The notes beneath the pieces were generated by a model that saw only the letters and a program-made list of their open reading frames with translations, was not told where the DNA came from and ran no database searches. The position numbers and the translations under genes are program-made. From Candidatus Methanophagaceae archaeon (GTDB lineage Archaea > Halobacteriota > Syntropharchaeia > Alkanophagales > Methanospirareceae), in contig PQXB01000001.1 in assembly GCA_003194425.1 (NCBI GenBank), positions 700,444 to 732,443 on the forward strand: a stretch of 32,000 bases of DNA, given 5' to 3'. Below are positions 20,201 through 29,541 of the stretch, piece after piece (position 1 is the first letter of the stretch; each line of letters opens with the position of its first letter).

Positions 20201-20406
20201 TGGAGTACACGGCGAGGATAAAAATTTCGTTCGTGGGCGACGAGGAGGTGAAAGAGGCGGTAAAAAATTTCTCAGACTACATTTGTGAGGAAACGCTCGC
20301 GGTGGGCATTGAGGAAGGTAAGCCGTCTGCCTCAAGTTCTGCGATTTACGAGAAGCGTTGGAAAATAGGAAAGAAACAGGTTCTTCTTGGAATTATTCGT
20401 ACTTAG
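17209..20406 (+). CDS. ileS: Isoleucyl-tRNA synthetase (archaeal type)
   Basis: [22 protein letters not shown] (HIGH), [19 protein letters not shown], editing-domain region, VKMSKSKGN (KMSKS). 1065 aa. Contains short in-frame repeats ([13 protein letters not shown] near 18939-18980; [10 protein letters not shown] near 19901-19930). Confidence 0.9.
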   Translation: [1065 protein letters not shown]

Positions 20407-20833
20407 AAGGGCATTTAAGCAGCAACTGCGTCGCGTTAAGGTGGCTGGGCGAAGTGAGCGTGCCGACGGCGACTACTTTTCGACCCTCTTTTAAGCCTTG
20501 CGGTTGCACTCCAGAATATTCAACCACAATTCTTGCTCGCTCGTTGTCCCCGCTCACTCCTCCGTCCCCTCCCCCGTCTCCAGTGCCACCGTCGGTAAGG
20601 CTAAAGAGCAGCGAGCCGTCTTCTCGCAGAGTAAGAGAGCCGTTGGCGACGGTTGCTAAAATCTGAACCTCTTTGTTGAGGAATTTGTTTTTCCCTCCGT
20701 CTCCTTCACCCACCACTTCGGAGACCGTCAAGTAGGGGTTGAGGTAAGACGAGAAGGCGTCGTAAGCGAGTAGGGCGCTCACGAGAACTAAACCGAGAAC
20801 GACCGCGTGAACAGGCTTAAATTTAAAATTCAT
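20393..20833 (-). CDS. ccmE: Cytochrome c-type biogenesis heme chaperone CcmE, CxxxY variant
   Basis: N-terminal membrane anchor, then an OB-fold-like pattern (YLTVSEVV..., VQILATVANGSL, FSLTD, IVVEYSGVQPQGLKEGRKVVAVG). The C-terminal LLKCPSKYE carries C-P-S-K-Y in place of the bacterial HxxxY heme-binding motif. The 3' end overlaps ileS by 14 nt (convergent). Confidence 0.8.
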   Translation of the reverse strand: MNFKFKPVHAVVLGLVLVSALLAYDAFSSYLNPYLTVSEVVGEGDGGKNKFLNKEVQILATVANGSLTLREDGSLLFSLTDGGTGDGGGDGGVSGDNERARIVVEYSGVQPQGLKEGRKVVAVGTLTSPSHLNATQLLLKCPSKYE

Positions 20834-20985
20834 TTTCCCACCCTCTCCTCTCTTCCTCCCTCTTTCTCCTTCCGCTCCAAGTCCGCAACCCGCTCTTTAA
20901 GCCTGGACAACCCCCTGTTCAGCCAAACAAAGACCGCCAAAAGTGTAGTCCAGTAAATTACCGAAACGACAAAAGACTCAAACAT
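20830..20985 (-). CDS. ccmD: Small membrane protein, CcmD-like (heme exporter protein D)
   Basis: Not in the track (51 aa): MFESFVVSVIYWTTLLAVFVWLNRGLSRLKERVADLERKEKEGGREERVGK. It has a single TM followed by a charged tail. It starts 1 nt after the ccmC stop and its TGA overlaps the ccmE ATG (ATGA). Position and topology fit CcmD. Confidence 0.55.
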   Translation of the reverse strand: MFESFVVSVIYWTTLLAVFVWLNRGLSRLKERVADLERKEKEGGREERVGK

Positions 20986-20986
20986 T

Positions 20987-21769
20987 TTAGACTGCTCCTC
21001 CTTCTCCTCTCACTTCTCCTCCTTCTCCTCCTTCTCCTCCTTCTCCTTTTCTGTAAATTAACGCTTCTACGCGGTCTTCTAACGACCAAACCGAGTAGGC
21101 GGTCGTCAAAAGGTAAGCGAAGAACAGTGTGGCTGCCAAGAGGTTCAAATACAAAACCGCCTGCACCGGTGCGGAGGAAGAGACTTTTGAGGCTTGAGGG
21201 TGCAGCGAGAGCAGGAGCGTTGCCGACAAAAAACTCAGTGGAATTGTAGAGAACGCAAGAATGTTGTAGACCGCGCCCACGACCGCTCGCTTCTCAACGC
21301 TCCCGATTGAGCGTTTCACCGAGAGGTAGCCCACGTACGCGACCCAGAGAATTAGCGTCGTCGTCTCCCGTGGGTCCCAGTTCCAGTACGCCCCCCACGC
21401 TGCTTCCGCCCAGACCGCGCCCGAAATCAAGGCGACCGCACCGTAAACCAGCCCCAAAACCGCCGACACCTCTGCCAGCCTGTCCAACTTGTCCAACTTC
21501 TCCAACCGGTCTAACTTCTCCAACCTCTTCGACTCGTCTGCCGACTTGCCCAAATTGTTTTTTGCAGCCAAAAAGCCGACGCTCGCGAGCAGAGAAATCG
21601 AGAAAGCGAGGTAGCAGATCCAGGCTGTAGGCACGTGTAGGTACAAGAAAAAAATGTCGCTCCTTTCCGCCTGCACCCCGGGGCCGAGGTAAGCAGCGTA
21701 AGAGGCGACTACGCTTACTGCTACGGCGACGCAGAGGAGAATGTTCTGCCCAACTGCACTTGTTTTCAT
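20987..21769 (-). CDS. ccmC: Heme exporter/heme lyase-like protein CcmC
   Basis: LHVPTAW (conserved His), tryptophan-rich WWD motif WGAYWNWDPRETTTLILW, and a second conserved His in LLLSLHPQ. Contains an inserted LEKLDRLEKLDKLDRL repeat and a C-terminal GEGGEGGEGGE tail. Confidence 0.85.
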   Translation of the reverse strand: MKTSAVGQNILLCVAVAVSVVASYAAYLGPGVQAERSDIFFLYLHVPTAWICYLAFSISLLASVGFLAAKNNLGKSADESKRLEKLDRLEKLDKLDRLAEVSAVLGLVYGAVALISGAVWAEAAWGAYWNWDPRETTTLILWVAYVGYLSVKRSIGSVEKRAVVGAVYNILAFSTIPLSFLSATLLLSLHPQASKVSSSAPVQAVLYLNLLAATLFFAYLLTTAYSVWSLEDRVEALIYRKGEGGEGGEGGEVRGEGGAV

Positions 21770-29164: not shown

Positions 29165-29215
29165 TACCCTCTCCCCTTTTCTTCTGCCGCTTCCCTTTTT
29201 TTCATCAGCATCATT

Positions 29216-29467
29216 TTATATTATCTCCAACACTTTAAAGAAAACAATACTTAAAAAAGCGAACAGCAGCGGATTGATTGCAACATTAATCGCTCTTCCG
29301 AGCAGTAATGCCTTTTCATTTTCACTTGCGCTGAGTAGTTCCTTCGCGATGAGAAGCGTAATTAAAATAACCACACCAAAGACTCCAAATACCGCCACTT
29401 GGCTTACCGACGCAGCCGTTGTCGTAGTCGTTGTTGTAGTCGTTGTTGTAGTTATTGTAGTTAGCAT
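29216..29467 (-). CDS. Small two-TM membrane protein with N-terminal poly-threonine tract
   Basis: 83 aa: MLTTITTTTTTTTTTTTAASVSQ... followed by two hydrophobic segments. It is the first ORF of the same-strand cohesin/dockerin locus, with TATA-like boxes upstream. No family recognised. Confidence 0.45.
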   Translation of the reverse strand: MLTTITTTTTTTTTTTTAASVSQVAVFGVFGVVILITLLIAKELLSASENEKALLLGRAINVAINPLLFAFLSIVFFKVLEII

Positions 29468-29504
29468 CTTCTTTTCCTTTTTTAAAAACGTAATATAAAA
29501 GGAA

Positions 29505-29541
29505 GTATATAAACTTTTCGATAGAGGGTATATAAACTTTT
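29505..29541 (-). promoter_or_regulatory. Duplicated BRE/TATA-like element (aaaagtttatata x2 on the minus strand) upstream of the locus
   Basis: + strand gtatataaactttt occurs at 29505-29518 and 29528-29541. On the minus strand this reads AAAAGTTTATATAC, matching an archaeal purine-rich BRE plus TTTATATA box. The proximal copy is about 40 nt upstream of ATG 29467. Confidence 0.4.

Follow-up and report, generated by a model that had tools for sequence, protein, structure and literature searches.

In the bacterial cellulosomes of Clostridium and Acetivibrio, anchoring and adaptor scaffoldins are combined with X-module-dockerin dyads, and archaeal cytochrome c maturation by system I relies on CcmABCDEF, with a C-x3-Y variant of CcmE. 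Binding between cohesins and dockerins of Archaeoglobus has reportedly been shown experimentally, by Bayer (1999) and Haimovitz (2008) as cited by Chadwick et al., and PDB entry 2xdh is presumably the A. fulgidus cohesin; we know of no multi-gene cluster of anchor, adaptor and cargo in that species comparable to the one described here. Here we analyse a 32,000-nucleotide (nt) stretch of contig PQXB01000001.1 from a Candidatus Methanophagaceae archaeon (the window, to whose positions all coordinates refer), in which genes for cohesin- and dockerin-bearing surface proteins run directly into the cytochrome c maturation genes ccmC, ccmD and ccmE. We consider it likely that these are two functionally separate units, a surface assembly cluster and ccmCDE, that were made adjacent by rearrangement in one lineage of ANME-1 (group 1 of the anaerobic methanotrophic archaea, ANME; Methanophagales).

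According to the text of Timmers et al. 2017, cohesin and dockerin domains are highly abundant in ANME-1 and ANME-2a, and two of the 15 genome columns of their Table 2 give 80 and 77 domains for cohesin and 149 and 112 for dockerin; roles in cell-cell contact or cytochrome adhesion were suggested (PMC5244752). In Chadwick et al. 2022, some proteins combine a dockerin with several cohesins, and transporter-binding proteins occur as cargo (PMC9012536); Murali et al. 2023 read these proteins as adhesins, with high expression in some ANME/sulfate-reducer partnerships (PMC10553843). Going by these passages and tables, the cohesin/dockerin expansion of ANME-1 and its reading as adhesins are already published, and a first-pass annotation of this stretch, which held that archaeal cohesins and dockerins are known mostly as domain hits, understates the three studies. 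The locus resembles these non-cellulosomal ANME proteins in belonging to the ANME-1 group, in its domain families, in its secreted or anchored products, in proteins that carry both cohesin and dockerin, and in the proposed adhesion role. The published sets differ in being genome-wide domain lists with up to five cohesins per protein, against one per protein here, and this cluster and its dockerin subtype are absent from the passages and tables searched. The genes and signals of the locus, in the order of predicted transcription, are as follows.

29505-29540, minus strand: putative promoter of the first predicted unit; two copies of AAAGTTTATATAC, resembling the archaeal transcription factor B recognition element (BRE) and TATA box, upstream of polyT
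29216-29467, minus strand: polyT; small membrane protein of 83 amino acids (aa); poly-Thr run at the N-terminus, two predicted transmembrane (TM) segments
27944-29164, minus strand: doc406, putative cargo; signal/TM segment, N-domain (28475-29002), Ig-like X module (28160-28471) and variant dockerin (27947-28174)
25828-27864, minus strand: coh-Ig-doc678, putative adaptor; signal, cohesin (27331-27741), Ig-like repeats (26356-27330), X-Ig module (26059-26355) and dockerin (25831-26058)
24879-25844, minus strand: coh-Big5_321, putative membrane-anchored socket; signal, cohesin (25299-25715), Big_5 (25014-25307), and C-terminal TM segment with basic tail (24882-24995)
24817-24878, minus strand: 62-nt spacer after 321, terminator/promoter-like; 8-bp hairpin followed by U7, further T-runs and an A/T-rich TATA-like stretch
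24100-24816, minus strand: coh238, putative anchored socket; signal, divergent cohesin (24223-24633), and C-terminal TM segment with basic tail (24103-24210)
22703-24103, minus strand: coh-BACON466, putative anchored socket; signal, cohesin (23594-24010), Pro-Thr linker, BACON_2 (23243-23503), choice-of-anchor U domain (22826-23134), and PEF-containing C-terminal TM segment with basic tail (22706-22810)
22641-22702, minus strand: 62-nt spacer after 466, ~79% identical to 24817-24878; T-runs kept, hairpin lost
21774-22640, minus strand: PGF288; signal, all-beta domain (21996-22556), Pro/Thr/Ser linker, and PGF motif with TM segment and basic tail (21777-21866)
20987-21769, minus strand: ccmC; heme-handling WWD protein with WGAYWNWD at residue 125 and two in-frame low-complexity insertions
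20830-20985, minus strand: ccmD-like; 51 aa with a single TM segment, assigned by position and by homology to the open reading frame (ORF) between ccmC and ccmE of relatives
20393-20833, minus strand: ccmE; archaeal variant ending in KCPSKYE (C-x3-Y)

All ten minus-strand ORFs called by the first-pass annotation were confirmed at these coordinates, and its naming of their domains proved correct in Pfam, NCBIfam and profile searches. Its description of the gaps and overlaps as tiny fits five of the nine junctions: from polyT to ccmE these measure 51, 79, -17, 62, -4, 62, 4, 1 and -4 nt, so the overlaps and the 4-nt and 1-nt gaps stand, but four junctions span 51-79 nt. By the profiles built here, the whole window holds four cohesins and two dockerins and no more. 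An N-terminal hydrophobic segment is present in every surface protein, with a C-terminal one as well in 321, 238, 466 and PGF288, and polyT matched no Pfam or NCBIfam family. As first noted, none of the ten proteins carries a CxxCH motif; in the window as a whole CxxCH occurs as single motifs in three plus-strand stop-to-stop frames, none of them a listed gene.

The two parts of the locus have separate histories of conservation. For the ccm part, we compared 11 Methanophagales genome or metagenome loci (L001-L007 and L094-L097; the contigs used for comparison carry L numbers), whose CcmC proteins are 52-66% identical. The order ccmC-ccmD-ccmE is conserved in all 11, with a divergent ccmA (ABC ATPase) upstream of ccmC in nine, eight of these also with CcmB (PF03379), while L002 and L003 show neither; in the window both ccmA and ccmB are absent. 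Published locus tags show the same pattern, with ccmC/D/E consecutive across ANME-1 and ccmA/B in variable position. The remaining neighbours of ccmC in relatives are radical-SAM/SPASM and AsnC/NirDL-like genes, which probably represent alternative heme synthesis, together with CcmF and c-type cytochromes. In the window, CcmC matches PF01578 at 2e-32 and CcmE matches PF03100 at 2.8e-15 and ends in CPSKY, the pattern of all ANME-1 relatives; no hidden Markov model (HMM) matched ccmD. The triad thus resembles archaeal system I in the WWD motif of ccmC, the small ccmD and the CPSKY of ccmE, and differs in lacking the normally divergent upstream ccmA/ccmB and in the two low-complexity insertions of CcmC.

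Homologues of the cohesins, the dockerins and PGF288 are absent from all 11 of these ccmC loci. The surface cluster was found next to ccmCDE elsewhere only in contigs of the same strain (L081 and L082). Contigs of assembly GCA_029935775.1 match the locus at 98-99.7% DNA identity with unchanged gene order, and the closest CcmC, from a metagenome-assembled genome named 'Methanomicrobia archaeon', is 98% identical, followed by Methanophagales/ANME-1 proteins at 66% or less. In L081 (JAPOGV010003763.1, same strain) a run of N at ~1900-2000 falls exactly at the PGF288/ccmC junction, with duplicated flanks; the N run is a gap in the assembly and does not represent a biological insertion. In the window an HdrD-like gene is found beyond the far end of the cluster, and in L004 such a gene is ~5.5 kb away from ccmC, a placement that fits local rearrangement of a variable region. 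A mobile insertion was considered and set aside, as there is no integrase and the guanine-cytosine (GC) content of 0.49-0.54 matches the flanks; nothing points to an imported island. Among the ccm loci compared, L095 carries at 9342-10460, directly after ccmE, a gene for a 372-aa Cytochrom_c3_2/Cytochrome_C7 protein with PGF-CTERM, with CcmF, radical-SAM and AsnC/NirDL-like genes near; unlike the window, L095 is a true ccm-cytochrome neighbourhood.

The surface cluster recurs without ccm genes in at least three other ANME-1 contigs, and ccm genes are absent from all seven related surface-protein loci; it is therefore a conserved unit. The synteny comparison that had been proposed as a check on a combined scaffold-ccm locus came out negative on both sides (none of the 11 other ccmC loci and none of these seven). 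The usual order in relatives is PGF protein, poly-Thr membrane protein, dockerin cargo, cohesin-dockerin adaptor and anchored cohesins. L100 begins with a PGF288 homologue (71%), a 76-aa ORF, a polyT homologue (78%, poly-Thr run included) and a doc406-like gene (N-domain and dockerin), and continues with a 501-aa protein running from cohesin to dockerin, a cohesin with anchor and a cohesin with BACON and anchor; L098 and L087 begin in the same way. The polyT homologues, 76-78% identical, hold the same place, first or second gene, in L087, L098 and L100. Homologues of the doc406 N-domain adjoin PGF288 homologues in L087, L090 (one N-domain homologue beside two of PGF288), L098 and L100, and in L084 a variant dockerin lies between two cohesin genes. 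Cohesin and dockerin genes of matching subtypes occur together in five related loci (L084, L085, L087, L098 and L100). PGF288 stands at the head in L087, L098 and L100 and at the tail, abutting ccmC, in the lineage of the window; in L099 a cohesin gene is followed by PGF288 as in the window, with no ccmC match in the 359 nt after the PGF288 homologue.

Peptidase genes adjoin some of these loci. A gene for an Rce1-like/CPBP intramembrane protease, which could process C-terminal anchors, is found upstream of the PGF288-headed cluster, on the opposite strand, in L098 (3765-4595, minus strand) and L100 (291-1064, minus strand); it is directly adjacent in L100, separated by an AAA_14 gene in L098 and absent from the window. 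A Peptidase_S8 (subtilisin-like) gene directly precedes the PGF288 homologues in L087 (284-1855) and L083 (825-2414), the latter with three tandem PGF288 paralogues.

All four cohesins pass the gathering score of PF00963 (24.1 bits), at 36.3 for 466, 28.2 for 238, 28.1 for 678 and 26.9 for 321; Big_5 in 321 and BACON_2 in 466 likewise exceed their own gathering scores, which bears out the Pfam check suggested for cohesin and Big_5, and the choice-of-anchor U domain of 466 is a strong NCBIfam match. The cohesin profile also matches solved cohesins, 2xdh best at 1.9e-6 and also 6kg8, 1g1k and 2vn5, whereas direct phmmer searches with 678 and 406 found no match among PDB sequences, and profiles were required. 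The likeness to A. fulgidus is that of an archaeal, non-cellulosomal system with a single cohesin per protein and 2xdh as the best solved match; the difference is that the sequence similarity is weak, as the profile E-value indicates. The cohesins are paralogous to different degrees: at the DNA level the cohesin modules of 466 and 678 share 98% identity over 300 nt, in genes that are otherwise unrelated, the module of 321 reaches 87%, and the coh238 cohesin protein is only 51% identical to the other three. In 678, the three ~110-aa Cys-containing Ig-like repeats are encoded by 330-nt tandem repeats. From this paralogy, anchors and adaptor probably share one specificity, from which 238 may depart, and 678 could therefore extend the assembly or self-associate.

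For the C-termini, the HMMs for PGF-CTERM and PEF-CTERM that the first-pass annotation had named gave no match on isolated segments, while the PGF motif, TM segment and basic tail are present in PGF288. No HMM for a known archaeosortase/exosortase sorting signal matched the C-terminal ends of the three anchored cohesin proteins, considered as PEF-CTERM-type; 321 shows weak midcut-by-XrtH similarity (E = 7e-4, far under the cut-off), and 466 has the residues P-E-F. Judged by their sequence features, the anchors of 321, 238 and 466 amount to a TM helix at the C-terminus followed by a basic tail.

The dockerins are more divergent. Against PF00404, with its gathering score of 22.9 taken as the operational cut-off, whole proteins 406 and 678 score 16.7 and 15.0 bits and the isolated module 20.6, below the threshold. 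Within their 76 C-terminal residues, 406 and 678 have two tandem segments, YDGDGVVDFMGDAIYLVRH and VNGDGVVDFMGDAIYLVRH, each of a Ca loop (sought as D-x-[DN]-x-D-G) and a helix, and the AlphaFold2 model of doc406 places the dockerin helices at residues 350-362 and 385-397. An HMM built from the two modules recovers 41 C-terminal modules among the proteins gathered here, which grade smoothly into canonical dockerins; 25 of 25 aligned relatives match PF00404 (best 1.4e-16), and the family profile matches 33 solved PDB dockerins, down to E = 3e-15. We therefore treated the modules of 406 and 678 as a variant dockerin subfamily, with the signature VDF[MVT][GH]D...YLVRHT...PGYE. Its low Pfam score goes along with subfamily-specific insertions of 3 residues in the first loop and 1 residue in both (VDFMGD vs VD-IAD), which the few relatives of the subfamily keep. 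The threshold check set for the dockerins therefore failed at the Pfam cut-off and was made good by the subfamily profile searches. An Ig-like module is always directly N-terminal to the dockerin, and 21 of the 150 closest cohesin proteins end in X-Ig plus dockerin. The X module of doc406 has a confident, Ig-like model, for which the fold search gave only generic Ig-like adhesin domains; between 406 and 678 the DNA identity is 83% for the dockerin and 72% for X-Ig.

PGF288 is the sole surface gene tightly joined to ccmC (4 nt). Its C-terminus has the PGF motif (...IPGFGLVEGLAAALIIFILNKRIKY) after a Pro/Thr/Ser linker; the window sequence has no Pfam or NCBIfam PGF-CTERM match, and many homologues carry PF18204. 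The family comprises 153 detected proteins, mostly of ANME-1, whose C-termini bear PGF-CTERM, cohesin, dockerin or CARDB; the PGF288 domain is fused to cohesin in P0133, P0227 and P0231 to dockerin in P0161 and P0237, and elsewhere to PGF-CTERM. The model is all-beta with a predicted local distance difference test (pLDDT) score of 82 and no significant PDB neighbour (best E = 1.3e-3, TM-score <=0.24), the weak structural neighbours being carbohydrate-binding modules.

To delimit transcription units, archaeal BRE/TATA-like and oligo-T features were read by eye; a sigma-70 promoter and hairpin-terminator scan is unsuited to archaea and was unused. The polyT/406 and 406/678 spacers are without T-runs, and the latter has the ribosome-binding site GGAGGTGA. 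Both 62-nt spacers are rich in T5-T7 runs, and the hairpin in 24817-24878 has a minimum free energy of -13.3 kcal/mol (z = -2.9). From the T-runs and hairpin we therefore predict the units polyT-406-678-321, 238-466 and PGF288-ccmC-ccmD-ccmE, with 22641-22702 as the likely boundary between the cohesin genes and PGF288-ccmCDE. In relatives a TATA-like box lies 45-60 nt before ccmC; the equivalent position in the window falls inside the PGF288 coding sequence, and an A/T-rich stretch 20-38 nt before the ccmC ATG could act as an internal promoter.

The above analyses suggest that the first unit (21774-29467) is a conserved, self-contained, non-cellulosomal cohesin-dockerin surface assembly cluster. 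The predicted type-I membrane proteins 321, 238 and 466 would each present one cohesin socket, on a spacer of Ig, BACON or choice-of-anchor U domains, on the outer face of the membrane, and into these sockets the secreted proteins 406 and 678 may plug by their ends of X module and variant dockerin, presumably in a Ca2+-dependent manner. The beta-rich N-domain of doc406 would be the cargo; 678, as it has its own cohesin of the same type, could serve as an adaptor by which the assembly is lengthened or branched; and PGF288, as a PGF-anchored beta-sandwich, and polyT would be conserved accessory members. The role is likely adhesion, matrix attachment or surface display in methane-oxidising consortia. 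The second unit (20393-21769) is the conserved archaeal system I ccmC-ccmD-ccmE triad, here without the divergent ccmA-ccmB that usually accompanies it. That anchored cohesins act as sockets to catch dockerin-tagged secreted proteins, as already put forward by the first-pass annotation, is well supported by the domains and by the same architecture in other ANME-1 contigs.

This arrangement shares its docking logic with the cellulosome, in that an anchored cohesin is joined by an adaptor with dockerin and cohesin and by a dockerin-tagged cargo, and X-Ig plus dockerin recalls the X-Doc dyad. It differs in that no multi-cohesin scaffoldin and no glycoside hydrolase or carbohydrate-binding-module cargo were detected here, in the use of a C-terminal TM helix or archaeosortase-like signal instead of domains of the S-layer homology (SLH) type or sortase, and in that, unlike in the cellulosome, the adaptor may self-associate because the cohesin of 678 is near-identical to those of the anchors. 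A carbohydrate-degrading, cellulosomal role was rejected on the basis of one cohesin per protein and no glycoside hydrolase or carbohydrate-binding-module family match in Pfam or NCBIfam.

The alternative raised by the adjacency itself, and by the first-pass annotation, is that the cluster scaffolds c-type cytochromes or other redox proteins outside the cell and is expressed together with ccmCDE, so that heme attachment and surface docking are coordinated. All ten genes lie on one strand, and the short junctions (PGF288/ccmC 4 nt, ccmC/D/E 1 and -4 nt) make one PGF288-ccmCDE transcript probable. Chadwick et al. state that ANME-1 depends on extracellular multiheme cytochromes (PMC9012536), Timmers et al. 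speculated on adhesion of multiheme cytochromes via cohesin/dockerin (PMC5244752), and the PGF-CTERM Cytochrom_c3_2 protein after ccmE in L095 indicates that surface-anchored proteins can adjoin ccm. We nevertheless regard a cytochrome scaffold as very unlikely, since none of the 11 other ccmC loci and no other copy of the surface cluster shows the adjacency, which is seen in this strain only; T-run, terminator-like spacers before PGF288 and coh238 part the cohesin genes from PGF288-ccmCDE; and the PGF288 family is linked to cohesin and dockerin, not to ccm. The expected cargo is also absent where it was sought. A full phmmer search with the cohesin module gave 674 relatives, and the best 150 of these (89,122 aa) contain no CxxCH, as is the case for the locus proteins. 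In the Chadwick tables, which list all cohesin and dockerin proteins of ~40 ANME and related genomes, none of these proteins bears a cytochrome c domain, and 'cytochrom' or 'heme' appears only in descriptions of PQQ-like, DOMON, CbiX and thioredoxin/TlpA-like domains (PMC9012536). The only redox-related cargo in those published tables, and a point in favour of the scaffold, is IGNPIAHP_00461 of ANME-1 ERB7 (Chadwick 2022 S4 Data), a protein of ~1475 aa with an N-terminal thioredoxin/TlpA-like domain and a C-terminal dockerin. A narrower variant, to which we give a still smaller chance, is that the PGF288-ccmCDE fusion is adaptive, with PGF288 and the cohesin-dockerin assembly as a surface platform that positions newly matured extracellular multiheme cytochromes and with dockerin-tagged cytochromes or thioredoxin-like maturation factors, encoded elsewhere, as partners; were it true, the platform would scaffold extracellular electron transfer with modular proteins.

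Two further explanations concern the surface proteins themselves. The modules could be cohesin- and dockerin-like by descent and no longer pair, the proteins acting as independent adhesins or sheath components that bind glycans, Ca2+ or partner-cell surfaces. The sub-threshold dockerins with insertions in both Ca loops, the presence of BACON, Big_5 and choice-of-anchor domains typical of glycan- and surface-binding proteins, and the carbohydrate-binding modules among the weak structural neighbours of PGF288 would fit this. It appears unlikely, however, as the loop insertions are conserved within the subfamily, which argues for function, and matching cohesin and dockerin subtypes occur together in every related cluster despite divergence, as co-evolving partners would. 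The locus could also be mainly a fast-evolving island of surface variation, its paralogous modules reshuffled through duplication and gene conversion as a defence against viruses or in partner recognition, with the ccm juxtaposition as a by-product. The 98% identity of the 466 and 678 cohesin DNA within otherwise unrelated genes, the 72-83% identity of dockerin plus X-Ig, the duplicated anchor-gene spacers (~79%), the 330-nt repeats of 678 and a gene order that varies by species (PGF288 at the head in L087, L098 and L100 vs at the tail in the window) all speak for such shuffling, and dockerin genes also occur on viral contigs that come from alkane-oxidising enrichments and have their best matches in ANME-2 genes. 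As architecture and gene content are nevertheless conserved across species, which implies a stable function, we consider this improbable as the explanation of the locus; it is compatible with two rearranged units and not a true alternative to them.

Several points weigh against the explanation that we prefer, of two separate units and a working surface assembly. The low-scoring dockerins with their loop insertions could have altered Ca2+ or cohesin binding. Domain identities, paralogy, the separate conservation of the two units and the lack of their juxtaposition elsewhere are shown; cohesin-dockerin pairing, surface topology, transcription units and the adhesive role we infer from sequence. 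The N-domain of doc406 is modelled at pLDDT <50 and is without functional assignment, as is the PGF288 domain despite its confident model. The cargo repertoire of this dockerin subtype is hardly sampled, as a word-index search with the 76-aa dockerin gave three proteins and a metagenome scan with the subfamily alignment at least three loci. The comparison contigs are short and metagenomic, and the cytochrome-cargo negatives cover the window, the 150 relatives and the published tables, with the remainder of this genome lying outside them. Because of the 4-nt PGF288/ccmC junction, PGF288 is likely co-transcribed with ccmCDE in this strain, possibly with a functional consequence.

Beyond the locus, in-frame short tandem repeats with periods of 9-30 nt occur at 1312-1435, 12483-12617, 18934-18979, 20995-21047, 21468-21539, 29634-29714 and 30811-30868, and add low-complexity GEEGEE, KGKA x11, RLEKLD x3 and GEGGEGG to housekeeping genes (Mg-chelatase-like, NTP-transferase, isoleucyl-tRNA synthetase, CcmC, PAC2 and HdrD-like). 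CcmC has 260 aa in the window vs 216-232 aa in relatives, and the insertions look like a lineage-wide trait. An anaerobic ribonucleotide reductase gene, NrdD (5387-9274, minus strand), contains an intein with a LAGLIDADG homing endonuclease (residues ~604-1107) where GC is 0.42. Tandem Peptidase_U32-like paralogues (9946-11220 and 11010-12017, with overlapping ORF calls), followed by a DUF5402 gene, occupy 9578-12017 (minus strand). At 16000-17000, GC falls to 0.36 beside tRNA-Arg(TCG) (16144-16216, minus strand), with A/T-rich 26-nt tandem repeats at 15948-16078 and a 145-aa ORF at 16256-16693 without a family match; this region may be what is left of an integrated element.

Few surface proteins of methane-oxidising archaea are as expanded, or as little understood, as the cohesin-dockerin proteins. 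With the present comparison, the tempting but unsupported link of this cluster to cytochrome maturation and extracellular electron transfer is removed. The locus and its ANME-1 counterparts define a compact set, conserved among them, in which one cargo and one adaptor go with two or three anchors; its size is biochemically tractable.

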